Notes under the pieces: generated by a model | What the model was told of the DNA's origin: nothing | The model's input: only the letters and a program-made list of their open reading frames with translations | Database searches by the model: none | Position numbers and translations under genes: made by a program | From: Escherichia coli | Lineage (GTDB): Bacteria > Pseudomonadota > Gammaproteobacteria > Enterobacterales > Enterobacteriaceae | DNA length: 64,000 nucleotides | Reading direction: 5' to 3' (one strand) | Assembly: GCF_003334305.1 (NCBI RefSeq) | Contig: NZ_QOWS01000018.1 | In this document: positions 14,153 through 62,617 of the stretch, one piece after another | Layout: every line of letters starts with the position of its first letter | Numbering within the stretch: the first letter of the stretch is position 1

Positions 14153-14478
14153 ATACATTTTACCGGTTTTGGCAGGCCAGCAATTTTGGTGGCTTGCTTA
14201 GCCGGACCTTTCGGAAACAGTCGATATAAATAGCGGCTGTTACCTTTTTCTTCGCCAAATTTATTCGCCATCGCTTTTACCAGCATACGAATCGCCGGAG
14301 AAGTATTGAATTCCAGATAGAAATCACGCACAAAACGCACCACTTCCCAGTGTTCTGGCGACAGCGAAATCCCTTCGTTCTCTGCAATCACCACAGCCAG
14401 CGGCTCACTCCACTGGCTGCTTTCTTTGAGATAGCCTTCGGTATCCGTTTCTATCTCTTTACCTTCGAAGATCAGCAT
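14149..14478 (-). CDS. tusE: Sulfurtransferase TusE (DsrC family)
   Basis: 109-aa [25 protein letters not shown]...PKPVKCI, with the C-terminal Cys typical of TusE/DsrC. Confidence 0.93.
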
Positions 14479-14568
14479 AATTATTACTACCTTAATCAGA
14501 CTGGCGGCAGTGTAACAAAAAACAAAGCCCCGCATAAAGCGAGGCTATGAAAGTGTTAGCGGGTGAGA

Positions 14569-15228
14569 TTAATCGCGGCTAGCGAAGCCCAGAATGCTCA
14601 GCAGGCTGACGAAGATGTTGTACAGCGAAACATACAGGCTAACCGTGGCACGAATATAGTTCGTCTCACCGCCATGAATGATGTTGCTGGTTTCAAACAA
14701 GATAGCGCCAGAGGAGATCAGAATGAAGACCGCGCTGATCGCCAGATGCAGAGCAGGCAGTTGCAGGAAGATATTAGCAACCATACCAATCAGCACCACC
14801 ACAATACCCGCCATCAGCATACCGCCGAGGAACGACATATCTTTGCGGGTGGTCAGCACATATGCAGAGCAGCAGAAGAACACTAACGCCGTTCCGCCCA
14901 GTGCCATAGCGATTACGTCACCCATTCCGGCAGACAGATAGGTGTTCAGAATAGGTCCGAGGATATAACCCAGAAAACCGGTAAAGGCGAATGCGGAGAT
15001 AATCCCGGTCGGCTTATTCGCCGTTTTATAGGTCAGGAACATCAAACCATACATACCCACCAGCGTCAGAATCAGACCCGGAGATGGCAGCATCAGCACC
15101 GTACTGGCAGTTGCGGTAATCGCCGAAAAGGCCAGCGTCAGGCTCAGCAGAAAATAGGTATTACGCAGCACCTTATGGGTGCTAAGCAGTGATGTACGGT
15201 CATGTGAAGAACTAACAATACGATCCAT
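14569..15228 (-). CDS. yccA: BAX-inhibitor-1 family membrane protein YccA (FtsH modulator)
   Basis: 219-aa polytopic [32 protein letters not shown]..., recognised as YccA. Confidence 0.94.
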
Positions 15229-50087: not shown

Positions 50088-50693
50088 TTAGCCGTTAAGT
50101 TTAACTGCCAGACCTGCGACATATTCCCCTTGATAACGAGCAATAGACAGTTCTTCCTGGCTTGGCTGGCGTGAGCCGTCACCGCCTGCGATGGTTGTTG
50201 CGCCGTACGGCGTACCGCCGCGAACCTGTGAAACGTCAAATAATTCCTGCGCTGCGTAGCCAATGGGGACAATTACCATGCCGTGATGCGCAAGGGTCGT
50301 CCAGGTTGAAGTAATAGTTTGTTCCTGACCGCCGCCAGTACCGGTGGAACTAAAGACGCTCGCCAGTTTTCCGTATAGTGCGCCGGAAGCCCACAGGCCG
50401 CCCGTCTGGTCGAGGAAGGTACGCATTTGACCGGACATGTTGCCAAAGCGGGTAGGTGTACCAAAAATAATGGCGTCGTAATCGGCCAGTTCTTGCGGGG
50501 TTGCAACCGGTGCAGTTTGCGTTTTACCGCCTGCTTTTTCAAATAATTGCGGCGGCATGGTTTCCGGTACACGCTTAACGACAACTTCTGCGCCATCCAC
50601 TTTGCTTGCACCCTCAGCGACTGCGCGTGCCATCGTTTCAATATGTCCGTACATGGAATAATAAAGCACTAGTATTCTTGCCTTAACACTCAT
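50088..50693 (-). CDS. wrbA: NAD(P)H:quinone oxidoreductase WrbA with an element-encoded substitute N-terminus
   Basis: The 201-aa ORF is identical in pattern to recalled WrbA from [21 protein letters not shown] onward. It begins MSVKARI instead of the K-12 MAKV. Those first codons and the GGAG RBS lie inside the inserted element (50670-50705). Confidence 0.9.
50663..50669. repeat. attL junction core (AAAGCAC)
   Basis: This is the last bases matching the wrbA sequence as recalled (GTGCTTT on the gene strand). The sequence diverges from 50670. Confidence 0.75.
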
Positions 50694-50744
50694 ATCATTG
50701 TTCTCCTGTTCAATGAACCACTTAGATAAGCATAGTCCGAAGAT

Positions 50745-52388
50745 ATGAAGCTGCTAGTGACATACATCAGGTGGAGTACTAAAGAGCAAGACTCAGGAGA
50801 CTCCTTAAGACGACAAACAAACCTCATTGATGCTTTCTACTCTAAGCACAAAAACGATTATTACCTTCTTCCTGCTCACAGATACGTTGATAAGGGTAAA
50901 TCTGGTTTTCACCAGCAACATAAGAATCAAGGTTCTGACTTCAGACGTATGTTTGAAAATGTTATGTCTGGGGCTATTCCAGAAGGTTCCCTGATTGTTG
51001 TAGAGAACTTTGACCGCTTCAGTAGGGCTGATATCGACACAGCTATAGATGATGTCAGGCAGATACTGAGGAAGGGAGTCTCTATACTGACTCTGGGAGA
51101 TGGTGAACTCTACGACAAGTCAGCATTAACAGACCCTGTGAAGCTGATTAAGCACATCATCATAGCTGAGCGAGCACATCAGGAATCTCTTGTTAAACAA
51201 AAGCGTATAGCTCAGGTCTGGAACCATAAAACACAGCTTGCAAGAGAACTTAAGAAGCCTATGGGTAAGCAAGCCCCCGGATGGTTAGAGCTATCAGAAG
51301 ACGGTTCACACTACATCGTTGATGAAGATAAAGCGTCACTGGTGAATATCATCTATGACAAGCGTCTTTCTGGTATGTCGATGTTTGCTATCTGCAAATG
51401 GCTAAACGAACAAGGTTACCCGACCATTAATCAGCGTAAGGTCAGAATATCCAAGACTAAGAAACCGGATGGTAACTGGTCAGCTTTAAGCGTTAAACAC
51501 ATCCTGACTTCACGAAGTGTATTAGGTTACCTTCCCGCTAAGATTTCTACAGAAGACCGTAAAACAGTGTTACGTGAAGAAATTGAAGGGTTCTATCCTC
51601 AGATTGTCACAGATTCTAAGTTTTACGCTGTACAGCAACTGTTAGAGGAAACAGGGAAGGGGAAAACATCCAGCGGTGACCACTGGTTATACGTGAACAT
51701 ACTGAAGGGGCTTATCCGTTGTAAGTGTGGGCTTGTAATGACTCCTACAGGGATACGTAAACCCGTTTATCAAGGTACTTACCGTTGCAATGGTAATAAG
51801 GAGTCCCGTTGTAGCTACGGTACAGTGTCCAGAAAGTTACTTGATACACAGCTTTGTAGTCGTCTGTTTAGCAAACTGTCACAGCTACACGATGAAGCTA
51901 CCGATACAGCTAAATTAGATGAACTACAAAGAAGATTAAACACCGTTGATGGTGAACTGGAAAAACTCACTGAGACGCTGATACAGCTTCCTAACATCAC
52001 TCAGATTCAAGAAGCACTACGGGTTAAACAGGAAGAAAAAGATGAACTGATAGTTCAGTTATCACGAGAAAAGGCGAGGGTAAAATCTGTATCAAGCTTG
52101 GATTTAAGCGGTCTTGATATGGAGTCTGTAGAGGGGAGAACTGAAGCCCAGATTATCATTAAGCGTCTGGTGAAAGAGATTGTTGTTTCTGGTAATGAAA
52201 AGCTGGTGGATATATATCTTCACAATGGAAATATGATTCGTGGTTTCCCTCTTGATGGTAAAGATGACCACACCTTAACGCTTGAAGAAGCAACCGATGA
52301 GATGCAGTCACTAGATGATATGCTTATTTTTGGTGAACCAGTAACAAGGATTTATCCTGCTGGTGATATGGAAGAGGTGGACGCTTAG
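50745..52388 (+). CDS. Large serine recombinase (integrase)
   Basis: 547 aa. N-terminal catalytic domain with YIRWSTKEQ (Ser nucleophile) and [11 protein letters not shown] recombinase domain, Cys-rich zinc-ribbon-like segment (CKCG...[14 protein letters not shown]) and a coiled-coil-like C-terminal region ([22 protein letters not shown]) follow. Confidence 0.88.
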
Positions 52389-53173
52389 TATTTTTTATTA
52401 GGGTTCACTGAGTACTTTTTAAGCTTTGAAGCTACTCGACCAGCGTTACTATTAGCATTGGTGACGTTGGTTTTTTCAGCTTCTGTTAAGTCTGAATAGT
52501 CCAGCTTCCAAGCCTTATTACACTTAATCTGAGCATCGAGAATATCATTTCTGATAGCTGGAGCGTAACCGGATACATCGCTAATACTCATTAGCTCTTT
52601 GCACGATAGCATAGGCGCGTTATTGCGTTCAGTGGTCACGTTACCTGCATTCTTCTTACTGGTCACACCACCATCATTCGTAGTCGCGGCTTTTCCAGTT
52701 GCAGCCGAGATATCAGTCTGCCCCACAACAGCTTTGAAGTTAATTTCCTGAAAAGTTAGTTGGATTCTTAATCCGTTTGAAATTCCAACATCTTTAGAGG
52801 CTTTAAAACTTGTGATAATGGAATCATCAATTTTAATTCCGTCTTTACAGATGACAGAAATAATCTGCTTCTGGTCACGCCAGTTTTCCAGAGTGTCAAT
52901 GAAGTTCTCTACTAATTGACCCTGACGAGTTAATAGTAAGCTTCCTTCATAACCAACTACAACGACACCACTGATAGTGATTGTTCTGGGTGCTCTTTGA
53001 ACATTATCTGTGACGGTTTGCCCTGATTGCATGTTCTGTGTAGTCACCTGCATAGGGCTATCAAATTCCATATTTTCAGTTGCTGATAAGGTTAAGAAGG
53101 CATCTACATTATCTCTTAAGTGGAAGTAAACGCCATCTTTGCCACTGTAGCGGATTTGATTGCTAAAAATCAT
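52385..53173 (-). CDS. Putative distal-tail/baseplate (Dit-like) protein
   Basis: Start set at ATG 53173, with AAGGAG six nt upstream, rather than the track's TTG at 53194. It lies immediately downstream of the tape-measure gene. The segment [34 protein letters not shown] resembles, from memory, the N-terminal pattern of Dit-like tail proteins. Not verified. Confidence 0.45.
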
Positions 53174-53190
53174 TAAATTCTCCTTTGATT

Positions 53191-53234
53191 TCAAAGGCTT
53201 AGTGTATTTTAATCATTTTTAACCAAGCCTTTGA
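53191..53234 (-). promoter_or_regulatory. 5'-leader hairpin preceding the Dit-like gene RBS
   Basis: Perfect 10-bp inverted repeat TCAAAGGCTT (53191-53200) / AAGCCTTTGA (53225-53234) with a 24-nt loop, between repeat cassette R1 and the RBS. Confidence 0.5.
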
Positions 53235-53253
53235 TATATAAGTATTTTCTCTG

Positions 53254-53323
53254 TTAAGCGTGAGCTACGTAAATTCTATTTTTCAGTGCGGGTATTAACT
53301 TTGCTTTATTCACGTAGAACACC
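53254..53323 (-). promoter_or_regulatory. Repeat cassette R1 (promoter-like) upstream of the Dit-like gene
   Basis: 70 bp, about 88% identical by eye to 55517-55586. On the gene strand it carries TAGAAT (complement of 53273-53278) with no good -35, plus CTACGTGAA and TACGTA boxes. Confidence 0.55.
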
Positions 53324-53329
53324 GTTAAA

Positions 53330-55498
53330 TCAATCATCTTCTGGGAATGATGAACTTAATAACGTAGCTTCTGCATATTGGTCGTAGATATTACTGCTAA
53401 AGGTCATAAAGCTGGTTTCATCTGGTTTAATGGCAACTTCACCACCAAGTGAAACTTTCACAGGCTCCTGAATACGCTTACTTAAAGCAGAGATTTCATC
53501 CCTCAGACCCTGAATATCTGCACTCGTTAATGCTGAATCTTGCTTAATGTTGTTTAATTCTGGATGATTGAATCTTGCAATATTCATTGTGGCATTGTTA
53601 AACAATTCACCCATTGAACTAAAAATTCTACTCCATCCTTCGTTAATCACATTCGGTTTATTAGGGTCACCAGAATACACAGGATTAAAGTCACTACCCA
53701 CACCTACCCCAGATGGATGCATATTAGCGTTTTTGACTACTTCCTGATTCATAAAATCCAGTGCTTTCTTCAATGCATATAAACCAAGAGTGACACCTCT
53801 GATTTGTGGAATCATTGAAGCTAATGCTAACGCTGTTTCATAACCGTCATCAGCATAACCAATTGCAAGAGCACTACCTACACCACCAGCTACACCTTTC
53901 AGTTTTCCACCACCTTTACCAGTAGCTACCTGACCAGCCACCTGATTAGCTCTTGTACCTAACGTTGTGATTGCTCTTGTCAGGTTCATAACCCCTGTAG
54001 TAGCACTGAATAGTGTCTTTGCAGATAACGCTATAGCAAGACCTTTGACGAAGTTGATAAATCCATCACCGACTTCATCAAGTAGCTTTCGCTTAGTGTC
54101 ATCAAGGCTGTAATAGGTCTTCTTAATCTGTAGAATCCAGCCTTCAAGGTGATTGTTAAAGATACGGATGTCATCTACACCAGCTTTAAGCATGTCGATA
54201 AGTCCACCGATAGCATCACCAGCGATAGAAGAACTCATACCCATTTCACTAAGCAGGTTACTCAGGCTGGATAAGAAGCCATTTAGCTCATCCTGTGAAC
54301 CTGAGAAGATTTTCACCATCGTATCATCCCAGTTGTTAGCCAGTTTCCCTAAAGCTGTCTGAGTGCTCTTAGCGACTTCAGCCCAGCCACCCGCTTTATC
54401 AATCATCAAGCCCATCTGTTTAGCGACTTTAGGGAGAGTATCACTACTTAAAATCTTCCCGTCTTTCATCGCTTTATCAAGCTCTGTAGCAGTCATACCC
54501 AGTGCTTCAGCGAATAGCTTAAATGCACCAGCCATACGGTCACCTAACTGACCACGAAGCTCTTCAGCCTGAATCTTGCCCTTGCTCGCCATCTGCTCAA
54601 ATGCTTTCAAAATGCCGTTTAGCTCATCGTTAGAAAGCCCCATTAAGCGACTCATAGCCGTTGCATTACCAAATAGCTCCTGTGTCTGTTCCTGTGACAT
54701 AGAACCCTGAGCACCTGCTGCAAACTTAGCGTAGCTTGATAGCCCTTCAGAGATATTAAGACCTGTCTTGTCTGCTAAATTTCGAATAAATACCTCAGCT
54801 TCAGATGCTTTATCACCAAGTACAAACTTAGCGGCTCTCTGTGCGGAATCTCGTTTAAGACCTGCATTCATGATGGCCTTGTAAGCGTTAAGAGCACCCA
54901 TCACAGAGTAAAATGCACCAGATAACTTGATTGCATTGCTTGCAAGATTATTAAATGCGTCGCTTGTATTGTTAATGCTGGTGGATGTATGACCTTTAGC
55001 TTTAGCAATTGCTTCTCTGACTGAAGCATTTAACTGAGTCAGCTTCTCATTGAATTTTGAAGAATCCATTGACCCAGCTTTAGCAGATAGCCCGTAAAAC
55101 TGAGATTTGATGTATTTCTGCAAAATAGGGTCAAAGCCTTTTAGCTTAGACATATTAGCTGAGTAAGCCGCTGTGATTGCTCTGTTGCCGCTAATTCGTG
55201 GCTGTCTTGGTTGTCTAAGTGGCTTTAAAGTGTCATCAATTTCCGTTTTAATCTTAAACGCTCTAGTGTTTTTAAGACGCTGCTCAATCTTGGAAACAGT
55301 TTTATCGACATTCTTTTCCATTAGTTTGAGAGAATCATTTAAAGGCGTAGGGTTAACTCTGAATGCCTTATTTAGTCGTTTCTCAATTCTTGATGCGATT
55401 TGCATCGTTTGTTTCTCGGCTTTTTCCAAGCCTTTTAAAACTTTCTGAGAGCTAAAACTTAGCTCAATCAAAAAATCATCAACTTTAAATTGTGCCAT
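53330..55498 (-). CDS. Phage tail tape-measure protein
   Basis: 722 aa, Ala/Gly/Leu-rich and predicted largely helical. The segment LNGILKAFEQMASKGKIQAEELRGQLGDRMAGAFKLFAEALGMTATELDKAMKDGKILSSDTL matches the conserved tape-measure core domain as I recall it (TIGR02675-type). A Gly-rich tract GKGGGKLKGVAGGVG follows. RBS is AAGAGGTG. Confidence 0.85.
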   Translation of the reverse strand: MAQFKVDDFLIELSFSSQKVLKGLEKAEKQTMQIASRIEKRLNKAFRVNPTPLNDSLKLMEKNVDKTVSKIEQRLKNTRAFKIKTEIDDTLKPLRQPRQPRISGNRAITAAYSANMSKLKGFDPILQKYIKSQFYGLSAKAGSMDSSKFNEKLTQLNASVREAIAKAKGHTSTSINNTSDAFNNLASNAIKLSGAFYSVMGALNAYKAIMNAGLKRDSAQRAAKFVLGDKASEAEVFIRNLADKTGLNISEGLSSYAKFAAGAQGSMSQEQTQELFGNATAMSRLMGLSNDELNGILKAFEQMASKGKIQAEELRGQLGDRMAGAFKLFAEALGMTATELDKAMKDGKILSSDTLPKVAKQMGLMIDKAGGWAEVAKSTQTALGKLANNWDDTMVKIFSGSQDELNGFLSSLSNLLSEMGMSSSIAGDAIGGLIDMLKAGVDDIRIFNNHLEGWILQIKKTYYSLDDTKRKLLDEVGDGFINFVKGLAIALSAKTLFSATTGVMNLTRAITTLGTRANQVAGQVATGKGGGKLKGVAGGVGSALAIGYADDGYETALALASMIPQIRGVTLGLYALKKALDFMNQEVVKNANMHPSGVGVGSDFNPVYSGDPNKPNVINEGWSRIFSSMGELFNNATMNIARFNHPELNNIKQDSALTSADIQGLRDEISALSKRIQEPVKVSLGGEVAIKPDETSFMTFSSNIYDQYAEATLLSSSFPEDD

Positions 55499-55516
55499 TG
55501 TTCATATTTCACCTCT

Positions 55517-55586
55517 TTAAGCGTGAGCTACGTAAATTCTATTTTTCAGTGTGGGTATTAGCTTTACAGATTTCACGTAGCACACA
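55517..55586 (-). promoter_or_regulatory. Repeat cassette R2 (promoter-like) upstream of the tape-measure gene
   Basis: Second copy of the 70-bp cassette. TAGAAT (complement of 55536-55541) lies about 38 nt upstream of the TMP ATG, directly downstream of a terminator. Confidence 0.55.
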
Positions 55587-55616
55587 TAGGATTCGATAGA
55601 AGACTATCTCATATAC

Positions 55617-55656
55617 AAAAAAGGAGAGTTACCGATGTCACTCGATAATCTCTCCC
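55617..55656 (-). terminator. Rho-independent terminator ending the 236-aa/71-aa transcription unit
   Basis: On the minus strand, GGGAGAGATTA...TAACTCTCC forms a hairpin (stems at 55650-55655 and 55623-55628) followed by a T6 run (55622-55617). Confidence 0.7.
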
Positions 55657-55699
55657 GTAGATTTTTACCCAACCAATTCTATTAGAAGCTAATCTCAAA

Positions 55700-55915
55700 T
55701 TAATGGTAAACGTAAGAATACATCCCATCATCACCTAAAATCTGTGCGTCACATGGTAATTTATCTAAGCACCATGAAGGAATCTTACGTACCTTTGGTT
55801 TATGTGAGGTGATAACTTGATGCTGATTTTTAATTCGTAGCTTTGGTTTAGTCTGAAGCTTTAAGTTCTCACAAACAGACTTAATAAGTTCATAGCGTTC
55901 TGTTAAATCAATCAT
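55700..55915 (-). CDS. Hypothetical protein (71 aa)
   Basis: ORF MIDLTERYELIKSVCENLKLQTKPKLRIKNQHQ... with RBS AAGAGGTGG. No family recognised. Confidence 0.6.
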   Translation of the reverse strand: MIDLTERYELIKSVCENLKLQTKPKLRIKNQHQVITSHKPKVRKIPSWCLDKLPCDAQILGDDGMYSYVYH

Positions 55916-55938
55916 TCACCACCTCTTTTAATTCATAG

Positions 55939-56649
55939 TTAAAGTGCCTTGCTATATTTCTGAGAAATCTTCACTAACTGCTCAATATCAGCCTGCATAG
56001 CAATCTTCTTCTGCGTTTCATATGCAGAAATAAGCTCTTTCATAGCCTGAAGCTCTCTTGAGAGATACAACTTAACATTTTCAAGTTGCTTGTTACGTGA
56101 TGCCAAGATGTTCTGTCTGGCAAGTTCAGCGAGTTCTTCATCGCTCTTATTAGTCGTGTAAATAAACTGACCAGCACCCCTTGAAGCTTTAACCATCTTC
56201 ACAATTCGATATCCAGCAGGAAGACTACTAATCACGGCTGCGACGTTTTCTTGAAAAGTACCAAAACCATCATTGTCTTCGTATGTGAAGTAAACATACG
56301 GCTTCTGTGACAATTCATCCTGAATCTCAAATTCTGACGGCTCAATAGCTGATTGCATCAGGGTAACTTTACTGTAAGCATCATCTAGTTTAATACGCTG
56401 TGCTTTTAGCAGTGGGTAATATTCACGCTCAAGCTCAAGTAATGCTTCAGTTTTGCATACATCAGGCATCTCTTGAGGCTCAGGAGACACAAAGATGATT
56501 TCCTTTGGTGACATTCGGATTTCTTGCTCAAGCTTAATTCTTTCATCGTGTTCTTTACGCTGAATAGCGATAGCTGGATGTTCAGTCTGTGGCGACCAGT
56601 CACCGAAGCTATCAATCACTTTGCCATTAATGTAAATATCATTTGTCAT
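55939..56649 (-). CDS. Hypothetical protein (236 aa) with a coiled-coil-like C-terminus
   Basis: ORF MTNDIYINGKVIDSFGDWSPQTEHPAIAIQ... with RBS GAGGAA. The C-terminal 70 aa are heptad-rich (LENVKLYLSRELQAMKELISAYETQKKIAMQADIEQL). No family recognised. Confidence 0.7.
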   Translation of the reverse strand: MTNDIYINGKVIDSFGDWSPQTEHPAIAIQRKEHDERIKLEQEIRMSPKEIIFVSPEPQEMPDVCKTEALLELEREYYPLLKAQRIKLDDAYSKVTLMQSAIEPSEFEIQDELSQKPYVYFTYEDNDGFGTFQENVAAVISSLPAGYRIVKMVKASRGAGQFIYTTNKSDEELAELARQNILASRNKQLENVKLYLSRELQAMKELISAYETQKKIAMQADIEQLVKISQKYSKAL

Positions 56650-56679
56650 TGTTTTTTCCTCTTCTAAGCTAAAGTATTT

Positions 56680-56765
56680 CAGTTTTTAAAAAGCACACCT
56701 GACAGCCTATCTAAACTTAGAAGAGACTTAAAAGGCGGTTTGCCAAGTATGCTTTTTAAAAGCTG
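56680..56765 (-). promoter_or_regulatory. Long inverted repeat in the leader of the 236-aa gene
   Basis: Arms CAGTTTTTAAAAAGCACAC (56680-56698) and GTATGCTTTTTAAAAGCTG (56747-56765) are complementary at about 17 of 19 positions, separated by about 48 nt. Confidence 0.5.
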
Positions 56766-56801
56766 AAAAAGCCCTAGATAACTAAAACGCTATAAAGGGC
56801 T
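56765..56801 (-). terminator. Attenuator-like hairpin plus T-run inside the leader
   Basis: On the minus strand, AGCCCT (56801-56796), a 20-nt loop, AGGGCT (56775-56770), then TTTTT (56769-56765). Located about 115 nt upstream of the 236-aa gene start. Confidence 0.4.
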
Positions 56802-57008
56802 AAGGTGAAGAAATTAAAACATCTAAAGGATTCAATAACGAATGAACAAAGACTTTTCGAGATAGCCTCTCAGGTTGTATAAGAGGCCATGTAGCGAAAA
56901 GCATTGCACCTTTCAGAATGTTCGGTATAGAACATACCTCACCAACTCAGAATATCCATCCATCGGATTATTGAAATAAATAAGAGAGAAATTCTCTCTA
57001 TAATTAAA

Positions 57009-57037
57009 ATTATGTCATGCTTAAGGTTATTTGTCAA
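57009..57037 (-). promoter_or_regulatory. Sigma70-type promoter (minus strand)
   Basis: TTGACA (complement of 57032-57037), a 17-bp spacer, then CATAAT (complement of 57009-57014). Followed at about +3 by the palindrome AGAGAGAA-A-TTCTCTCT (56983-56999). Confidence 0.55.
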
Positions 57038-57062
57038 CAGCTTTTTAACAGATTGGTAACAT

Positions 57063-57128
57063 TTATACTTTAATAGATGCACCTGCAATCATACCAATCA
57101 ACACAAAACAGAGAATCACCAATTCCAT
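57063..57128 (-). CDS. Candidate 21-aa hydrophobic peptide
   Basis: Hand-translated: MELVILCFVLIGMIAGASIKV. Its ATG overlaps the TAA of the upstream gene (TAATG), suggesting translational coupling. Confidence 0.4.
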   Translation of the reverse strand: MELVILCFVLIGMIAGASIKV

Positions 57129-57451
57129 TAATGCACCACCTTCGAATCCGTAACCAGAATATTATCGCTGTACAAAATTGCTATAGCCGCCTTGAGATAT
57201 TTTTCAGGGCTAACGCTGTATTTGTTCGTTTGCTCGACAACCAATCTTTTCATGTTGCTGTCTTTAATTGGTAGCATCATTCGAGGCTCGTTAAACTCCA
57301 CCGACTGAATAAAGTCAGAGATGCTTTCCGCATTATCAGTCATTAACTCTAACAACTTATCAAAGTCAATGCTAACACCTACATCAGTGAAAGCCTGAAT
57401 CATCATGGCGGTGTCGGTATCAATAAAAATCTGTAATTCGTAATTGTTCAT
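57128..57451 (-). CDS. Hypothetical acidic protein (107 aa)
   Basis: Start set at ATG 57451 (MNNYELQIFIDTD) with AAGGAG upstream. The track's TTG start at 57484 is rejected. No family recognised. Confidence 0.65.
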   Translation of the reverse strand: MNNYELQIFIDTDTAMMIQAFTDVGVSIDFDKLLELMTDNAESISDFIQSVEFNEPRMMLPIKDSNMKRLVVEQTNKYSVSPEKYLKAAIAILYSDNILVTDSKVVH

Positions 57452-57606
57452 TTTTAAAATCTCCTTTTTACCAGACCTCCTCAATCGCTCTGTAACGAGC
57501 TAAACAGTCTTTTTCAGGGGTAGCCTGTACAGTGGTATTACCCACCCTAAAATAAGATAGTTTTTTGCGTCAGAATGCGATTGAGAGCGTCTGAGAAGCT
57601 GTTTTT

Positions 57607-57894
57607 CTAATTTCTCTTAAAGTCTCGGACTTGCATAAGATTTTTTGGTCTGGTATCGGCTCTGTTACCATTTCGATGGATAATTTGCTTGTTGGATTGA
57701 TAGCCATGATAAAGAAACCAGACAACATATTTCACGTAGAAAGTATATCGGCCTATATTAAATGTTTTGTTGCCGTAGTCGTCGGTGTTTATCGTGACTG
57801 ACTCTCCATCAGACCAGCACAGGGAATCACTGGATTCATCATAGATAAGGTGTTCTGCAAAATATCTTCTAACATCTTCATTCCAAGGTTTCAT
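57607..57894 (-). CDS. HNH-like small protein (degenerate motif)
   Basis: 95 aa. YVVWFLYHGYQSNKQIIHRNGNRADTRPKNL resembles the HNH_3-type pattern (aHRlvw...G..idHiNGn..DNR..NL), but the usual Asp preceding the His and the DNR Asn are substituted. Confidence 0.5.
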   Translation of the reverse strand: MKPWNEDVRRYFAEHLIYDESSDSLCWSDGESVTINTDDYGNKTFNIGRYTFYVKYVVWFLYHGYQSNKQIIHRNGNRADTRPKNLMQVRDFKRN

Positions 57895-58106
57895 AAAACC
57901 TCCTCACCCCAATAACCTAATTCAATCTTGTGACGCTCAAACCATTCCGGTTTAACTGCTGTTTTCAGTACTTCATTTGGGCCAATGGCTTTAATGAAAA
58001 TATCTTTTGAGTTATGGATGTCACCGAATCCGTTTCCTTCAATCAGGAGGTCGGAGATGTAGCGAATCATTTTATCCGTGTGGTATTCAAAGGTAACGCA
58101 TAGCAT
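57891..58106 (-). CDS. Hypothetical protein (71 aa)
   Basis: ORF coupled at both ends: TAATG with the upstream gene and ATGA with the downstream gene. No family recognised. Confidence 0.6.
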   Translation of the reverse strand: MLCVTFEYHTDKMIRYISDLLIEGNGFGDIHNSKDIFIKAIGPNEVLKTAVKPEWFERHKIELGYWGEEVL

Positions 58107-58387
58107 TAAACCTCCAGAGACAGCTTGTGAATCTTAAGACTCAATAGACGGGCAATATCAATTTTAAAGCCGTTAAGTCCCTTCAAAGTATCTAAAGCGT
58201 CCTGAGTAATTCGGATGTGTTTACGACCTTTAGAGACTGGATATTTAAGTAAATCCGACTCAGTAACCTCTTTAGCAATTGCAAGCTGCATAACAGTCTG
58301 ATGAGGTAAGTTAGTAGCTCGTTTAATTCTGGCAAGCTCGTTAAAAGCTTCCTCTGAAATGCGGGTTAAAGTGTGTTTGTTTTTCAT
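58106..58387 (-). CDS. Putative tandem ribbon-helix-helix DNA-binding protein (93 aa)
   Basis: Two internal segments look like an RHH beta-strand plus helix: KHTLTRISEEAFNELARIKR and RKHIRITQDALDTLKGLNG. Inference from the pattern only. Confidence 0.4.
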   Translation of the reverse strand: MKNKHTLTRISEEAFNELARIKRATNLPHQTVMQLAIAKEVTESDLLKYPVSKGRKHIRITQDALDTLKGLNGFKIDIARLLSLKIHKLSLEV

Positions 58388-58388
58388 T

Positions 58389-58943
58389 TTAAAATTCCTC
58401 TGTAACTAAATACGGGTCAAATTCAAAGTCTGGTTCACTGGTTGTAAGGCTGATATTTCCAACTTCCGCATGATGATTAATTGTCTCAATAACTTTCATG
58501 CAAATAGTGGCTAAGTTAGCGCAATATTTATCACTTGGTAATTCGTAGCTAAGTCTGGTTGCTTGTCTTTGAAGATGGCTCGTCACTGTGCTTGAACTAA
58601 TCTCATCAAGACTTCGCAGTAAATAAAAAACCTTCCGGTGATAATTATCTCTTCCAAGACTGCGACAAGTACCGATAATTACATCTTCAATTCGTGGCGG
58701 TAATTGCTCGTAAGAATCAAAGCCCATCAAGAAAGTTTTTAAAGTATTCTCTTTTTCTTTGCGTGCTGGCATAAATCTGTCTCGTGGCGTAATGCTACGA
58801 ATGACCGCTTCAATGTTCTTACGTTCGGATTTGCTAAAGGTTGGGACTTCGTAGCTGGTGGGGGTGTCTGTGTGGCTGTAACCGTTGTGTCTGTTGCGTT
58901 CTCTTGATGCCTGAAGCATCGCTCTAAATTCTCTGTCGTTCAT
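58389..58943 (-). CDS. Hypothetical protein (184 aa), first gene of the leftward operon
   Basis: ORF MNDREFRAMLQASRERNRHNGYSHTD... directly downstream of the promoter at 58994-59022. No family recognised. Confidence 0.65.
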   Translation of the reverse strand: MNDREFRAMLQASRERNRHNGYSHTDTPTSYEVPTFSKSERKNIEAVIRSITPRDRFMPARKEKENTLKTFLMGFDSYEQLPPRIEDVIIGTCRSLGRDNYHRKVFYLLRSLDEISSSTVTSHLQRQATRLSYELPSDKYCANLATICMKVIETINHHAEVGNISLTTSEPDFEFDPYLVTEEF

Positions 58944-58993
58944 TCATAAGCTAGTCCTTATAATTGTTAATTCTCTGTTAACTTATATATACA

Positions 58994-59022
58994 ATACTAG
59001 CATTTTCAAAGACTAATGTCAA
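58994..59022 (-). promoter_or_regulatory. Sigma70-type promoter of the leftward operon
   Basis: TTGACA (complement of 59017-59022), a 17-bp spacer, then TAGTAT (complement of 58994-58999). Confidence 0.6.
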
Positions 59023-59029
59023 GCATTTT

Positions 59030-59059
59030 TTAACATTTCATTAACATCTGTGGTATAAT
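59030..59059 (+). promoter_or_regulatory. Divergent extended -10 promoter (rightward)
   Basis: TTAACA (59030-59035), then TGG-TATAAT (TG at 59051-59052, TATAAT at 59054-59059). Back-to-back with the leftward promoter. Confidence 0.55.
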
Positions 59060-59186
59060 GGTTCTATGGGGAGAGTAAAATATAAAGGCGTGGCTATGAG
59101 GTTTATTCGATAGGGGTTGGTACAAGCCCAACCAACCGAATCAACTATGTATGTCACATGGTATTGCATTGCACACAGGAAATTTA

Positions 59187-59363
59187 ATGGTAAATCTCCC
59201 TCCTGAACTGGGGTCACCTGATGTATGGGCTGGTGGAGGTATCGGGCTGATTGCAGGTCTGTTACTCCGCTACGTCCTTGTCAGAGTGCTTGTTGTGTTC
59301 CGATTGTTCGGTCGTACATGGACGCTTGACCTTAAGGATAATGAGCACACAGAACCCCGTTAA
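59187..59363 (+). CDS. Candidate small membrane protein (58 aa; 70 aa if started at 59151)
   Basis: MVNLPPELGSPDVWAGGGIGLIAGLLLRYVLVRVLVVFRLFGRTW... contains one hydrophobic helix. AGGAA lies 5 nt upstream of ATG 59187, while the ATG at 59151 has no RBS. The local composition is more GC-rich than its neighbours. Confidence 0.45.
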   Translation: MVNLPPELGSPDVWAGGGIGLIAGLLLRYVLVRVLVVFRLFGRTWTLDLKDNEHTEPR

Positions 59364-59406
59364 GCTCCCTTCAAATCCCCCTGTACGAGATGGCATAGGG
59401 GTGTCT

Positions 59407-59422
59407 TTAGCATTTTGTGCTA
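59407..59422. promoter_or_regulatory. Operator-like inverted repeat TTAGCA-N5-TGCTA
   Basis: TTAGCATTTTGTGCTA. The 18-nt box TCTTTAGCATTTTGTGCT (59404-59421) recurs at 60678-60695, and each copy is followed by (A)CTTGACA(G/A)AA. Confidence 0.45.
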
Positions 59423-59483
59423 TCTATTAAAAAATAACTTGACAGAACCGGAAAGCTGTATCTATCAGGTATTCACCTCTCTG

Positions 59484-59559
59484 ACAGTAACTTCTAAAAG
59501 TTCTTATTTTTCAATGAGTTGTAATCACCCATATATAGAGAACTGACAAGTCTCTTCAC
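59484..59559 (+). repeat. 76-bp direct repeat, copy 1
   Basis: ACAGTAACTTCTAAAAGTTCTTATTTTTCAATGAGTTGTAATCACCCATATATAGAGAACTGACAAGTCTCTTCAC. About 89% identical to copy 2, and the last 31 nt are identical. Confidence 0.9.
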
Positions 59560-59578
59560 AATTAACTCTGTAACCTTA

Positions 59579-59654
59579 ACAGTGATTTCTAAAAATGCTT
59601 ATTTTTCAATAAGTTGTAATTAGCCATATATAGAGAACTGACAAGTCTCTTCAC
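59579..59654 (+). repeat. 76-bp direct repeat, copy 2
   Basis: ACAGTGATTTCTAAAAATGCTTATTTTTCAATAAGTTGTAATTAGCCATATATAGAGAACTGACAAGTCTCTTCAC. The period is 95 bp. Confidence 0.9.
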
Positions 59655-59971
59655 GGAGAACTTCCTGGACTCACTAAGATACAAGGCGATAACCCCAGAA
59701 AGGGAGAGCCACCTTCTAATTGGTATTGTTATGAGGATGCTTCATCCGAATCATCTACCAATCCCTAAACCGACTTCTTAAACAATCTTTACAGACCCCG
59801 TTCACCAGTCTCAATATTTTTATTTCTCGCTCTTCGTTTGTTGCTCGTTTCTATTATTGAGGGGGTTTGAAAAACCTCTGTAAAATAACCCTTCCAGTAA
59901 AAAGCGAATAACCCCAGAGAGGGGGAATCGCCTCTTTAACATTCTCATAATCAGTGCTCTATATGAGAATT

Positions 59972-60640
59972 TCAGCCCAACCTTTGAACAATCTTGTAAG
60001 TGGTGCTTAGAGGCATTCTTAGCGATTCTGCGATGCTCTTGACGGATTGCCCTTGGCCATGCAGTTTAATCAGCCTGTCAAGCGTCTGTGCATCGTGTAT
60101 ATGAGGTCTTCCACGTAAACCACCCCTGTTAACCACGGCAAGTAAAAGCATTGTGTCGCCACAATAGATTGTTTGTGTAACTTCAACCTTCGGTTTACGG
60201 GGTGTGTTCCTGTATATCAAAACGCAACTTGCAAACGGTGAACGCACTACAACACCTTTCTTCCCTGCTGGTGGAAGGTATTTGACTGCTCGGTGTAACG
60301 TTCGAATCTCATGCAGAAAGGGGTTTGTATATACACACCGAAGCCAGTAAGTTGTCTTTGACCTGTGCGGAACCAGACATACACACACATCAGCTTCATG
60401 GGATTTTAGGAGGAACCTTTCAGCCATGCTAAACGGCGGGTTAACGAAGACCCGTTCACCAACCCATGATTGATTGTGAATATCATCGGTGAACCGTGGC
60501 AACAATGCGTCATGCTCAGTTGCAGCACCATCCATCGAAAAACCAAATTCACGGTGTAGGTTACGAAATAAACGATACGGTGTACGCCAGTCATCAGAAC
60601 CACCATGATAACGACCGACATTGATTATTGGATGTGACAC
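59972..60640 (-). CDS. Phage Dam-type N6-adenine DNA methyltransferase fused to a C-terminal HTH
   Basis: 222 aa with a GTG start. SDDWRTPYRLFRNLHREFGFSMDGAAT and VFVNPPFS (NPPF catalytic motif) fit the phage Dam family (pfam05869-like, from memory). The C-terminal GQSVKSIAESLRMPLSTTYKIVQRL looks like a resolvase-type HTH. Confidence 0.75.
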   Translation of the reverse strand: MSHPIINVGRYHGGSDDWRTPYRLFRNLHREFGFSMDGAATEHDALLPRFTDDIHNQSWVGERVFVNPPFSMAERFLLKSHEADVCVCLVPHRSKTTYWLRCVYTNPFLHEIRTLHRAVKYLPPAGKKGVVVRSPFASCVLIYRNTPRKPKVEVTQTIYCGDTMLLLAVVNRGGLRGRPHIHDAQTLDRLIKLHGQGQSVKSIAESLRMPLSTTYKIVQRLG

Positions 60641-60677
60641 AAGCGAAGCGCCCCTCTTAGTATATTTCTTAATCGTC

Positions 60678-60724
60678 TCTTTAGCATTTAGTGCTTTTTG
60701 TTAAGTTTAGCACTTTTTGCTAAA
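60678..60724. promoter_or_regulatory. Two operator-like inverted repeats upstream of the methyltransferase gene
   Basis: TTAGCATTTAGTGCT (60681-60695) and the perfect TTTAGCA-CTTTT-TGCTAAA (60706-60724), followed by TTGACA at 60735-60740. Confidence 0.45.
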
Positions 60725-61142
60725 GACAAAACACTTGACAAAATGGTAAGATTGTTCACATGACCTTACTTAACAGATTCTTAAGAGCTTTGAAACGAAC
60801 TGTTTAACAAGGTCACTACCTCTGGTCTTATCGTTCCCTCTCTTCTTGGTAGTTCTGTTAAGTATCTTTTCAGGTATCTCTTACAGTCACTGTTAAGATA
60901 GAACCTACCTTCGGTTTCATGGTTCTCTTCCTCCCGTTAAATATCCCTTCACAGTCAGACTAAATAACACCTCTGTAGTTTCTTGGTAGAATCTTTCAAG
61001 GTAACTTAACTCTGAGTTTATGAAGTTGACCTTAGTCAATGTTTGTGAAGGTGTTACAGAGCATGTTCTCTAGGTCTGTGTAGCTCACTAAGCGAGAGAG
61101 GGGATATGTGACCATAGGGGAACCCCTCCTGTTAAAAGTTTC

Positions 61143-61170
61143 TTGATGTTATCATCACAATATGTATAAT
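61143..61170 (+). promoter_or_regulatory. Sigma70-type promoter (plus strand) in an ORF-free region
   Basis: TTGATG (61143-61148), a 16-bp spacer, then TATAAT (61165-61170). Confidence 0.55.
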
Positions 61171-61176
61171 CACCAA

Positions 61177-61337
61177 CTGTACAGACACCTTAACGGTTTC
61201 TCTACACCTCACTATGGCTAGGTAGGGTATGGTTTAGCTTGGTACGGCTAGGTTAGGTCTGGTTTGGTTAGGTATGGGTGGATTGTCGTAGCCACGTTAA
61301 AAATCGACTTATAGGGACTCTTTCGGGAGTCCTTTTT
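61177..61337 (+). ncRNA. Candidate ~160-nt small RNA with tandem 15-nt G/T-rich units
   Basis: Bounded by the promoter at 61143-61170 and the terminator at 61315-61337. It contains no ORF longer than 5 codons. Five consecutive 15-nt units begin at 61216, 61231, 61246, 61261 and 61276 (GGCTAGGTAGGGTAT / GGTTTAGCTTGGTAC / GGCTAGGTTAGGTCT / GGTTTGGTTAGGTAT / GGGTGGATTGTCGTA). Confidence 0.35.
61315..61337 (+). terminator. Rho-independent terminator (plus strand)
   Basis: GGACTC (61315-61320), loop TTTCGG, GAGTCC (61327-61332), then TTTTT (61333-61337). Confidence 0.65.
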
Positions 61338-61541
61338 AGTTTGTATAAAATCTGTACAGGAGTTATCAGGCTTCTAAAATTTTTATAAAAAATAATCAGA
61401 CCTCTTCTAAGCCTCTTCAACCAAATCTTTCGAAAATATCTGACAGATGTCTGTAGCTGCTAAGTACCCGTCACACCAGCTATGTGACCCCCTTGGCAAA
61501 AAAGCCAAATATCAGCTACATCCATGTAACTATTCAGTAAC

Positions 61542-62093
61542 TTATTTAGCAAGTCTGTAATAAGTTGCTCTAGAGATTCCTAACTCTTCCTGAATCTGCA
61601 ACCTCGTCTTACCTTGTGAAATAAGCGTCTGTACAGCCTCTGAAGAAGCCTTTACAGGCCTCCCCATATGTACCCCTTCAGCTTTAGCACGTTCAATACC
61701 AGCCTTTCTACGCTCTGCTATCAAGCTTCTTTCAAGCTGTGCCAACGTTGACATAATGCCTAACATTGCTTCACCCATAGCGCTTGATAAGTCAAACCCT
61801 TCTCTAAGGCTGATAACTGTCACACCTTTAGCCTGTAGCGCTTTAACCGTTGATAACACATCAATTGTGTCACGTCCAAGACGGTCTACAGCTACCACAA
61901 CTACGGTGTCACCTTCTCGTGCATAAGCTAACAAACTACTGAAACCGTTTCTTAAAGAAGCTTTGACAGAACCACTGACAGCTTCATCAGTGAACCATTT
62001 AGCAATGTTGTACCCTGCCTCTTCAATTTGCATTTGCTGGTTAGTGATGGATTGGTCATCTGTACTCACCCTGCAATATCCAAGTATCGCCAT
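61542..62093 (-). CDS. Small serine recombinase (resolvase/invertase family)
   Basis: 183 aa. MAILGYCRVSTDDQ (Ser nucleophile), VVAVDRLGRD, an E-helix LAQLERSLIAERRKAGIERAKAEG, GRP, and a C-terminal HTH ISRATYYRLAK. Confidence 0.9.
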   Translation of the reverse strand: MAILGYCRVSTDDQSITNQQMQIEEAGYNIAKWFTDEAVSGSVKASLRNGFSSLLAYAREGDTVVVVAVDRLGRDTIDVLSTVKALQAKGVTVISLREGFDLSSAMGEAMLGIMSTLAQLERSLIAERRKAGIERAKAEGVHMGRPVKASSEAVQTLISQGKTRLQIQEELGISRATYYRLAK

Positions 62094-62107
62094 ACATCCC
62101 CCTTAGA

Positions 62108-62231
62108 AGTCTCAAAAGTTAGTCTCATAAGTTTAGCTGTCTCATAATCCAAAAACAACCTTTTGAGACTACTTGAGGGTGCATTCTACCGTTACGTTGA
62201 AAGTGTCTCAAAAGGAAGTCCTTTTAAGACT
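62108..62231. promoter_or_regulatory. res-like cluster of recombinase binding sites
   Basis: There are six GTCTCA / T(G/A)AGAC half-sites. They include a 28-bp inverted pair TGTCTCAAAAGGAAGTCCTTTTAAGACT (62204-62231), a 33-bp inverted pair TGTCTCATAATCCAAAAACAACCTTTTGAGACT (62138-62170), and AGTCTCAAAAGTTAGTCTCATAA (62108-62130) next to the recombinase start. Confidence 0.6.
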
Positions 62232-62427
62232 GGTTATGAAGGAGCTATGAAGATTTTAGGAGGGTAACTATAACCATCACTTTCTAACTTTCACGTAGGA
62301 AATCGTTAAGTTTCTTGATAGTTACACCATGTGACCAACTATCTATATATCGTTATATAGCCCTGTATATAACACTTTTCTAGGAGTCGAGAGAGGGACG
62401 ACTAACACGATACAGTTTACCCTGAAA

Positions 62428-62447
62428 AGAGACTTCACAGATTCTCT
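62428..62447. repeat. Inverted partial third copy of the 76-bp repeat core
   Basis: AGAGACTTCACAGATTCTCT compares with the reverse complement of AGAGAACTGACAAGTCTCT (59537-59555 and 59632-59650). It is flanked by TCTCTATATAT and TTCAATAAGTT, which are also shared with the repeats. Confidence 0.7.
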
Positions 62448-62610
62448 ATATATTTCAATAAGTTAGGCTAAAAAGAGACTATACCGATACTGTATAGAAT
62501 CTGTGTAGAATTGCTTAGATACTTGGAAAAATGCCTTTAAATTGAATAGGTACTAACCTGTTTATGTCCTGTTATTAACAGGTAGTTGAATGTACGTGTT
62601 TAGCTATGTA

Positions 62611-62617
62611 AAAGCAC
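62611..62617. repeat. attR junction core (AAAGCAC)
   Basis: Identity with the native wrbA 5' end as recalled resumes here (AAAGCACCAGAACTTTAGCCAT is the complement of ATGGCTAAAGTTCTGGTGCTTT). Confidence 0.75.

Follow-up and report, generated by a model that had tools for sequence, protein, structure and literature searches.

An integrative element in the first codons of Escherichia coli wrbA belongs to a modular family of probable satellites of, or at least anti-phage islands against, virulent Felix O1-like phages

Among the satellites that exploit phages, the P4-like and PICI families carry mainly tyrosine integrases, have temperate helpers (P2-like or lambdoid) and act either on the capsid, through Sid/Psu, Cpm or capsid genes of their own, or on the specificity of the terminase. 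The PICMI, small satellites of about 6 kb, depend on virulent vibriophages, while the PLEs of Vibrio, the counterparts of phage ICP1, span about 18 kb. In Escherichia coli, the gene wrbA is a target of Stx phages, which are 60-kb lambdoid phages with tyrosine integrases. Felix O1-like phages, in turn, are classic typing and biocontrol phages of Salmonella and E. coli and candidates for phage therapy. Here we describe an element of 11,948 bp inserted in the first codons of wrbA, at positions 50670-62617 of a 64,000-nucleotide stretch of an E. coli genome (contig NZ_QOWS01000018.1 of assembly GCF_003334305.1; hereafter the window). The window matches the genome of E. coli strain A7 (NZ_CP028767.1, orangutan faeces) at 100% identity. 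Together with its relatives at other chromosomal sites, it probably represents a new family of satellites, or at least of anti-phage islands, directed against virulent Felix O1-like phages.

The element has a G+C content of 40.2%, against 51% in the flanking host chromosome and 38.9% in phage wV8, and the window outside it, from fabA to agp, is ordinary core chromosome. Its left junction (50669|50670) reads ...GGAATAATAAAGCAC|TAGTATTCTTGCCTTAACAC, or, in an alternative writing, ...ATGGAATAATAAAGCAC|TAGTATTCTTGCCTTAACAC, and its right junction (62617|62618) reads ...GTGTTTAGCTATGTAAAAGCAC|CAGAACTTTAGCCAT. Both ends carry the core AAAGCAC (50663-50669 and 62611-62617), which corresponds to codons 6-8 of wrbA. 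The attL site extends over 50641-50689, with its element arm starting at 50670, and attR, at 62596-62632, includes the orphaned native wrbA start. A first-pass annotation of the window had proposed an insert of about 11.95 kb that splits the 5' end of wrbA, with AAAGCAC at both junctions, and the insert lies exactly where it was placed. Joining 400 + 400 bp of the host flanks gave a sequence with 100% identity to the uninterrupted wrbA-ymdF locus of many genomes, so that 50669 joined to 62618 restores the intact locus as had been predicted. This site is contiguous in 5127 of the 5426 complete E. coli genomes to which all our genome counts refer. The interval 50670-62617 is therefore not ancestral sequence; that most E. 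coli carry it at this locus had been named beforehand as an outcome that would speak against an insertion, and the empty sites show otherwise.

A large serine recombinase of 547 amino acids is encoded on the plus strand at 50745-52388, its reading frame starting 76 bp inside the left junction, in agreement with the first-pass annotation. The protein presents Resolvase (PF00239, E 3.6e-11, residues 5-155) and Recombinase (PF07508, E 5.6e-20, residues 194-302) domains, both above the Pfam cut-offs, and matches the integrase family PHROG 95 at 5e-78; a zinc ribbon (PF13408, Zn_ribbon_recom) scored E 2e-4 and 22.1 bits, under its cut-off of 25.3 bits. With a dN/dS of 0.03-0.08, the recombinase gene was found in 74 genomes at 95-99% nucleotide identity, the 70-mer across the attL junction in 74, and that across the attR junction in 75, so that recombinase and site correspond almost one to one. 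The attP and attB sites are short and unlike each other, share the 7 bases AAAGCAC, somewhere within which the crossover can be placed, and define one specific target. Inverted-repeat or dyad symmetry had been taken as a hallmark of both sites, a claim that failed against shuffled sequence: centred on the AC that closes the core, attP has a dyad symmetry of 11/20, a score reached by 33% of shuffles, and that of attB is likewise no better than shuffled. The att sites rest on the empirical junctions, not on symmetry. Taken together, these observations support a site-specific insertion in the first wrbA codons by a large serine recombinase, unrelated to Stx phages.

Other events are seen at the same locus. 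About 300 of the 5426 genomes have no contiguous wrbA-ymdF site, of which the element described here accounts for only 74-75, and in some genomes (strains STEC276 and A30) wrbA-ymdF is interrupted by IS1.

The element repairs the gene that it splits by supplying a new 5' end. Its left end provides a Shine-Dalgarno sequence (AGGAGA-N9-ATG), the start ATG at 50693 and eight N-terminal codons (50670-50693), giving a hybrid wrbA coding sequence at 50088-50693 on the minus strand (RefSeq WP_000111568.1, with the same accession in strains S40 and M19). The hybrid WrbA begins with MSVKARIL in place of MAKVL (native MAKVLVLYY...), and its length stays at 201 amino acids. The native wrbA promoter and start now read an 11-codon stub (MAKVLVLLHS*, 62632-62600, minus strand) and then onward toward a small recombinase gene. 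Thus, the description of wrbA as split was right in that the insert separates the gene from its native start, and has to be amended in that the gene is not truncated. In contrast, relatives inserted in yecE (L006 and L007) leave that gene as two pseudogene halves.

The element integrates and excises as a unit, and free circles of unit length occur in the family. A 30-mer across the predicted attP (TAGCTATGTAAAAGCAC|TAGTATTCTTGCC) is present in three metagenome contigs, so the attP that had been reconstructed on paper from 62596-62617 and 50670-50689 exists verbatim in nature, in one case in a circular contig. Contig NODE-633 of ERZ506742 (11,233 bp) is collinear with the whole element and permuted across attP, and it has a terminal overlap of 55 bp, which makes it a circular or tandem free form. 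A second circular assembly, k141_307676 of ERZ27241592 (11,141 bp, 126-bp overlap), represents a member whose integrase is of another type. Additionally, a Logan contig with an integrated copy ends k-1 bases beyond each of the two cores, as would be expected from a mix of occupied and empty or excised sites in the assembly graph. The core of the first-pass reading holds, given the empty sites, the matching counts of recombinase and junctions, and the natural circular attP junction. One attP-spanning metagenome contig (L010, OOBX01000469.1; 23,009 bp, of which 6,057 bp were examined) is about twice the unit length and has rearranged right-hand cargo, and may represent either a dimer or concatemer or else a composite element.

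Rather than a generic island, the element is one member of a large modular family. Its central backbone (55939-59000) occurs in 479 of the 5426 genomes, well beyond the 74 that hold its recombinase, which answers how widely the element and its recombinase are spread, a check that the first-pass annotation had called for. Strains S40 and M19 present the same architecture at wrbA, with identities that range from <70% to 99% from module to module. The same backbone follows a 507-residue integrase inside yecE (L006 and L007), a 506-residue integrase at yciI-tonB (L031; 225 genomes have this type) and a 514-residue integrase at lafU-dinB (L032, GB089; 29 genomes). There are at least four integrase types for four chromosomal targets, the four integrases being mutually 27-38% identical, and at all four sites the size of 11-12 kb and the gene order are alike. 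All compared genes are intact, with dN/dS between 0.03 and 0.44, including the genes for the tape measure protein (TMP) and the tail tube initiator, for which dS is saturated. Homologues of the signature proteins are found in E. coli, Shigella, E. albertii, E. fergusonii and Salmonella, and a pattern scan of the GTDB species representatives returned two loci only, in Escherichia sp. and E. albertii. Among open-access PubMed Central papers and bioRxiv, no description of this element at wrbA or yecE was found, and no paper in that literature links Felixounavirus, Felix O1 or Ounavirinae to a satellite.

The tail genes and cis sequences of the element point to Felix O1-like phages. Its only structural genes are those for the TMP and the tube initiator; the rest of the virion set is absent, as no gene for a capsid, portal, terminase, sheath, tube, baseplate wedge, fibre or lysis function was recognised with Pfam, PHROG and NCBIfam. 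The TMP gene (53330-55498, minus strand; 722 residues) matches Pfam TMP_3 at 5e-22 and PHROG 4036 at 8e-90, and its product shares 29-33% amino acid identity with Felixounavirus TMPs, its best match among all phages. The initiator homologue (Dit-like; 52385-53194, minus strand, with the RefSeq start at 53173 giving 262 residues) aligns over its full length with PDB 9ndy_A, the gp18 tube initiator of phage Bas63 (E 2.3e-114). When the element was compared by megablast with 50,697 phage records, the sole matching region was 52640-53158 (519 nt, the tube-like domain of the initiator), which has 93-95% nucleotide identity to Felixounavirus gp74 in 212 records. These are mostly Escherichia and Salmonella phages by name, and all top matches are Felixounavirus genomes of about 86-90 kb, a genus reported as lytic and free of temperate marker genes (PMC11737134). 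In wV8, gp74 (the initiator) directly follows gp73 (the tape measure), and the element keeps the same order.

Across the family, the initiator is 70-94% identical to that of wV8. For the members at the low end, no sequenced phage exceeds 76%, and every match belongs to the Ounavirinae, a range that suggests an old association repeatedly refreshed by recombination with co-infecting phages. In Bas63, a hexamer of the initiator adapts the hub to the tube and sends a C-terminal extension of about 100 residues through the baseplate, and the last 25 residues of the TMP dock on the puncturing device and the hub (PMC12609058). The initiator of the element has a tube domain almost identical to the phage one, and in its C-terminal extension all but the last dozen residues have diverged. 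The TMP follows a similar pattern, with the first ~50 residues phage-like (59% identity), an unrelated middle, and a phage-like C-terminus, LLSSSFPEDD, that is, ...LLSSS(Y/F)PE(E/D). The phage-facing parts are kept in both tail proteins, which thus retain the surfaces needed for entering a helper tail. Besides, each of the two genes is preceded by a 69-nt internally palindromic repeat (GCTACGTGAAAT...ATTTACGTAGC) on the minus strand, one copy at 53254-53322 just upstream of the initiator gene and the other at 55517-55585 just upstream of the TMP gene. The two copies are 88% identical, which suggests a common regulator or RNA structure.

The cis sequences relate to the packaging ends of the same phages. 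Felixounaviruses package by direct terminal repeats (DTR) (PMC8303462, PMC11737134), and the DTR of a relative, Pr103Blw, measures 581 bp (PMC8303462). Two records of separate laboratories, those of H12 (L026) and Ro111lw (L028), share their first base, GCCCCCTTAACA. In wV8, this is position 14351, which lies within a 1.6-kb non-coding gap between convergent transcription units that is rich in TTAACA/TGTTAAG repeats. In H12 and Ro111lw, the distance from the physical left end to a motif, GATATTTTAAAATTCTGCAAAGGGGGT / GATATTTTAAAATT(C/T)TGCAAAG, is 530-589 bp. The last bases of this motif in wV8 are AAGGGGGT, an inverted form of the terminal GCCCCCTT, which lies 579 bp away (14,351-14,929, L004); the Felixounavirus DTR appears to be bounded by the inverted pair GCCCCCTT ... 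AAGGGGGT.

The 27-mer at wV8 14903-14929 is found exactly in four family members (L006, L007, L011 and L032), and every other complete member examined has it at the corresponding place with 7-9 substitutions. In the window, the copy of this inner-boundary motif (GATATTT..TGCcAAGGGGGT) lies at 61487-61513 on the minus strand, within a longer block, 61340-61584, that is homologous to the phage (E 3.5e-7). A second non-coding block, at 60747-60897, is rich in TTAACA/TGTTAAG and resembles the interior of the Felixounavirus repeat, with 66% identity over 154 nt to wV8 14558-14703 (E 2e-8). By its position, the motif may be a copy of the packaging or cleavage signal of the helper.

A third phage-like non-coding sequence is an RNA-like unit at 61143-61342 on the plus strand. 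It comprises, in order, a promoter-like site, 12-13 GGUNN repeats (61216-61280), a hairpin with the conserved loop UAGCCACGUUAAAAAU, and a canonical terminator (61313-61342). In the GGUNN repeats, the GG and the U are kept and the spacers are free, with 10-13 units depending on the member. Four units of this kind lie between genes 93 and 96 of phage wV8, on the minus strand at 59,305-59,545 and 60,704-60,919 (L005 19,305-20,919). The hairpin stem covaries, occurring as GUCG/CGAC, GGUAG/CUACC, GUCUCA/UGAGAC and GGCAG/CUGCC. In an alignment of 7 sequences only, a hairpin proposed by hand pairs 88.6% of the alignment cells, against 68% in shuffled ones, and 4 of its 5 pairs show compensatory changes; RNAalifold gave a different, weakly supported fold for the unit. 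No Rfam family matched the unit, nor was any found in wV8 40,001-88,487 at gathering thresholds, and the element as a whole had no Rfam match at E <= 0.1. The unit travels with the small-recombinase cassette of the type seen in the window and is absent from other members, and we therefore regard it as cargo rather than core. A universal packaging or origin site was considered for it and dismissed, as yecE-type and several other members lack the unit. It could act as a protein sponge or as a G-quadruplex array.

Upstream of the tail genes lies a series of further minus-strand genes. Directly upstream of the TMP gene, an open reading frame (ORF) of 71 codons (55700-55915) is present in all members and has no family match. 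It is followed by the signature ORF of the family (55939-56649), which encodes 236 residues with a predicted coiled coil. RefSeq names this product a transposase, a label that finds no support in Pfam, NCBIfam, PHROG or PDB, none of which returned a match, and tblastn found no phage match either. Its AlphaFold2 model consists of long helices (pLDDT 69), and its family comprises 3091 clusters at 90% identity but only about six full-length clusters at 50% identity among 1.84 billion representative proteins. Next come a conserved ORF of ~107-118 residues with no assigned function (57128-57484), a small HNH endonuclease of 95 residues (57607-57894; Pfam HNH_3 1.7e-8, PHROG 99) and two small conserved ORFs of 59-71 and 93 residues (57891-58387) without significant family match.

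The leftward operon opens with a gene for an all-helical protein of 184 residues (58389-58943, minus strand), which has no informative fold match. In two other members, L011 and L032 (GB089), the first operon gene instead encodes a winged-helix protein of 313-326 residues that matches PHROG replication-initiator, DnaD-like and O-like families at 1e-8 to 1e-10; no homology was detected between this protein and the 184-residue one in the same slot. Upstream of the 184-codon gene, a consensus scan placed back-to-back sigma-70-like promoters at 58994-59059 (TTGACA-17-TAGTAT leftward and TTAACA-18-TATAAT rightward), and further up, at 59484-59654, lie two 76-nt direct repeats, 95 bp apart and 91% identical, which are conserved in S40 and M19 and are candidate iterons or a candidate origin. 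A replication module is thus likely for the family and putative for this member. Between the 184-codon gene and the methyltransferase gene described below, about 1 kb is non-coding apart from a divergent plus-strand gene (59187-59363) for a single-pass membrane protein of 58-62 residues, conserved in the six members checked. The protein begins MVNLPPELGSPDVWAGGGIGLIAGLLLRY..., has no family match and could work as a toxin, in exclusion or in the manner of a holin.

The right-hand part of the element holds variable cargo. A Dam-type N6-adenine methyltransferase fused to a helix-turn-helix domain (59972-60640, minus strand; Pfam Dam 3e-13, HTH_7) is absent in S40 and M19. A small serine recombinase of the resolvase/invertase type (61542-62093, minus strand; 183 residues, Pfam Resolvase 6e-42, HTH_7) forms an optional cassette that is absent or replaced in L006, L007, L010 and L016. 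An invertible switch around this gene was considered on account of 21-nt inverted repeats at 60854 and 62421 and of an opposite orientation in L007, and was rejected, as the cassette is present, absent or replaced, with no inverted segment.

We put at about 0.6 the probability that the element is a PLE-like satellite of virulent Felix O1-like myoviruses (Felixounavirus, subfamily Ounavirinae). A fuller statement, that it stands for a new Escherichia satellite family, present in ~9% of complete E. coli genomes, which parasitises these phages in a way without earlier description, by replacing the tail core of the helper and copying its DTR boundary and whose excision is triggered by the phage, has in our judgment an even chance of being correct. 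From the gene content and the cis sequences, we infer induction, replication and packaging during Felix O1-like infection, together with interference with the phage. In the proposed cycle, infection by a Felix O1-like phage would induce the element and lead to its excision. The recombination directionality factor (RDF) may be supplied by the phage, as in the Vibrio PLE, whose excision directionality factor PexA comes from the phage (10.1101/218164). Such a source would also fit the element, since no ORF in it is recognisable as an RDF, a class of proteins without a common signature. Replication would start from the element's own initiator/iteron module near 58.4-59.7 kb, and the helper terminase would then recognise the element through its terminal-repeat mimic. 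The element would leave in helper-built particles whose tail core contains its own TMP and tube initiator. As all of this would happen at the phage's expense, the element would double as a strain-level defence.

Several points weigh against this model. Neither induction by a Felix O1-like phage nor packaging into one is seen in any dataset that we analysed. With 11-12 kb, the element amounts to about 13% of the helper's 88 kb, and no capsid-size redirection gene is recognisable, so that the model does not readily account for the filling of an 88-kb helper head; nor does it give a satellite a reason to carry a tape measure of its own. The copy of the terminal-repeat motif in the window is diverged, matching at 20 of 27 positions, and it is the position of the motif that suggests a terminase site. 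This member has no recognisable replication protein, the 184- and 236-residue proteins being without informative sequence or fold match. Finally, the attP 30-mer was not found in IMG/VR, where the records matching the family have ids like those of isolate genomes and are read as integrated copies rather than viromes, and the circular contigs come from metagenomes of unspecified preparation and prove circular or tandem junctions, not virions.

The main rival to a satellite, which we hold to be unlikely, is a mobile island that defends against phages without being packaged itself. A decoy TMP and initiator would dock in the baseplate hub and either nucleate defective tails or sequester the tube or sheath protein, the copy of the terminal repeat would titrate or misdirect the terminase, and the island would spread by other means and be kept because it protects the clone. 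Conserved phage-facing interfaces next to a diverged remainder are what a dominant-negative competitor would show, interference of mobile elements with tail assembly has a precedent in the Tai systems (PMC11364771), and this member, at 13% of the helper's genome size, has neither a capsid-remodelling nor a recognisable replication gene. However, PADLOC detected no defence system in the element, its sole match being that of an orphan methyltransferase model to the Dam-type protein (7e-9), whereas a full integration module is in place and sister members hold a replication-initiator module. Unit-length free circles in two independent metagenomes also argue against an island of this kind, and modular exchange with four integrases implies frequent horizontal transfer, yet conjugation genes are lacking. 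Defence does not exclude a satellite, as known satellites also interfere with their helpers.

If the ties to phages were only historical, the element would be a serine-recombinase integrative element whose phage-like genes are passengers of past recombination, with no present link to Felix O1 and with tail genes that may serve, for example, an unrecognised secretion or bacteriocin function. That most ORFs have no known function and that the cargo (Dam methylase, small recombinase and RNA-like unit) is variable would agree with this explanation. It is nevertheless improbable, because the TMP and initiator pair is invariant in all members and under purifying selection, and has been repeatedly refreshed from contemporary phages (93-95% nucleotide identity in some members, 70% in others). 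Moreover, three separate phage-derived non-coding sequences are present, and a tailocin cannot be built from two tail proteins alone. Phage structural genes next to an integrase, in a gene that is a known prophage site (PMC8309913), could also be what is left of a larger temperate prophage decaying in wrbA. We give this origin hardly any weight, and it can be excluded for practical purposes, as the compared genes are intact with the dN/dS values given above: the same size of 11-12 kb and the same gene order recur at four sites in hundreds of genomes, this copy has no pseudogenes and dN/dS is well below 1, unit-length circles exist and no longer version was seen, and the only phage relatives are Ounavirinae, described as lytic and without temperate markers.

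If a satellite of Felix O1-like phages is the right reading, phage host range and treatment failure would depend in part, unnoticed, on an element present in about one in eleven E. coli genomes and built to intercept these phages, and virulent phages would drive a new route of gene transfer. The satellite concept would be extended from the hijacking of capsids to that of the tail core, and to helpers that package by direct terminal repeats, and a tractable E. coli counterpart of the Vibrio PLE-ICP1 pair would become available. In addition, the family provides at least four new serine integrases with natural attB/attP pairs (wrbA, yecE, yciI-tonB and lafU-dinB), potentially useful as orthogonal tools, and the wrbA case presents an element that mends its own target gene through a new 5' end.

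How does the element relate to the systems already described? It shares its target gene with Stx phages such as 933W and differs from them in lacking stx. In line with the first-pass annotation, which had noted the absence of stx genes and a different integrase class, its gene content includes a serine recombinase and no tyrosine integrase, lambdoid regulatory or morphogenesis modules or stx operon. With temperate phages that use serine integrases, it has in common the integrase class and the short att sites and, unlike them, carries no capsid, terminase or lysis module. The resemblance to P4-like elements, PICI and cf-PICI is broader. These are likewise chromosomal, integrase-bearing E. coli elements of about 10-15 kb without a full set of virion genes and with variable cargo at hot spots. 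They copy the packaging signal of the helper (cos or pac) and encode an initiator of replication along with its origin, to which the putative DTR mimic and the likely replication module of the family described here would correspond. Nevertheless, none of their hallmarks (a tyrosine integrase with AlpA, Pri-Rep or alpha primase, Sid/Psu/Delta, Cpm, TerS, Rpp or an HK97-type capsid) was found in the element with Pfam, PHROGs and NCBIfam, and we know of no P4-like or PICI family with a tape measure and a tube initiator. By their descriptions, two further systems are set apart: the PICMI have a different gene set in about 6 kb, and the Tai systems, in which proteins of mobile elements block the tail assembly of a helper or invader (PMC11364771), consist of single small inhibitor proteins that are not homologues of tail structural proteins.

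The closest parallel is the Vibrio PLE-ICP1 pair. As in the PLEs, we see a small chromosomal island with a large serine recombinase, excised circles, a replication module of its own (here likely for the family) and a partnership, here a matter of inference, with a strictly virulent myovirus. The two differ in that the element measures 12 kb and targets protein-coding genes or intergenic sites in E. coli, and in that no RepA_N or other PLE-type domain, the PLEs being represented in this comparison by their domains, was detected in it (Pfam and PHROG, E <= 0.01). It also brings a TMP, a tube initiator and a DTR mimic; to our knowledge, tail-core genes and a DTR mimic are not PLE features. As no gene homology between the two was detected, the element would, by analogy, work like a PLE without being one.

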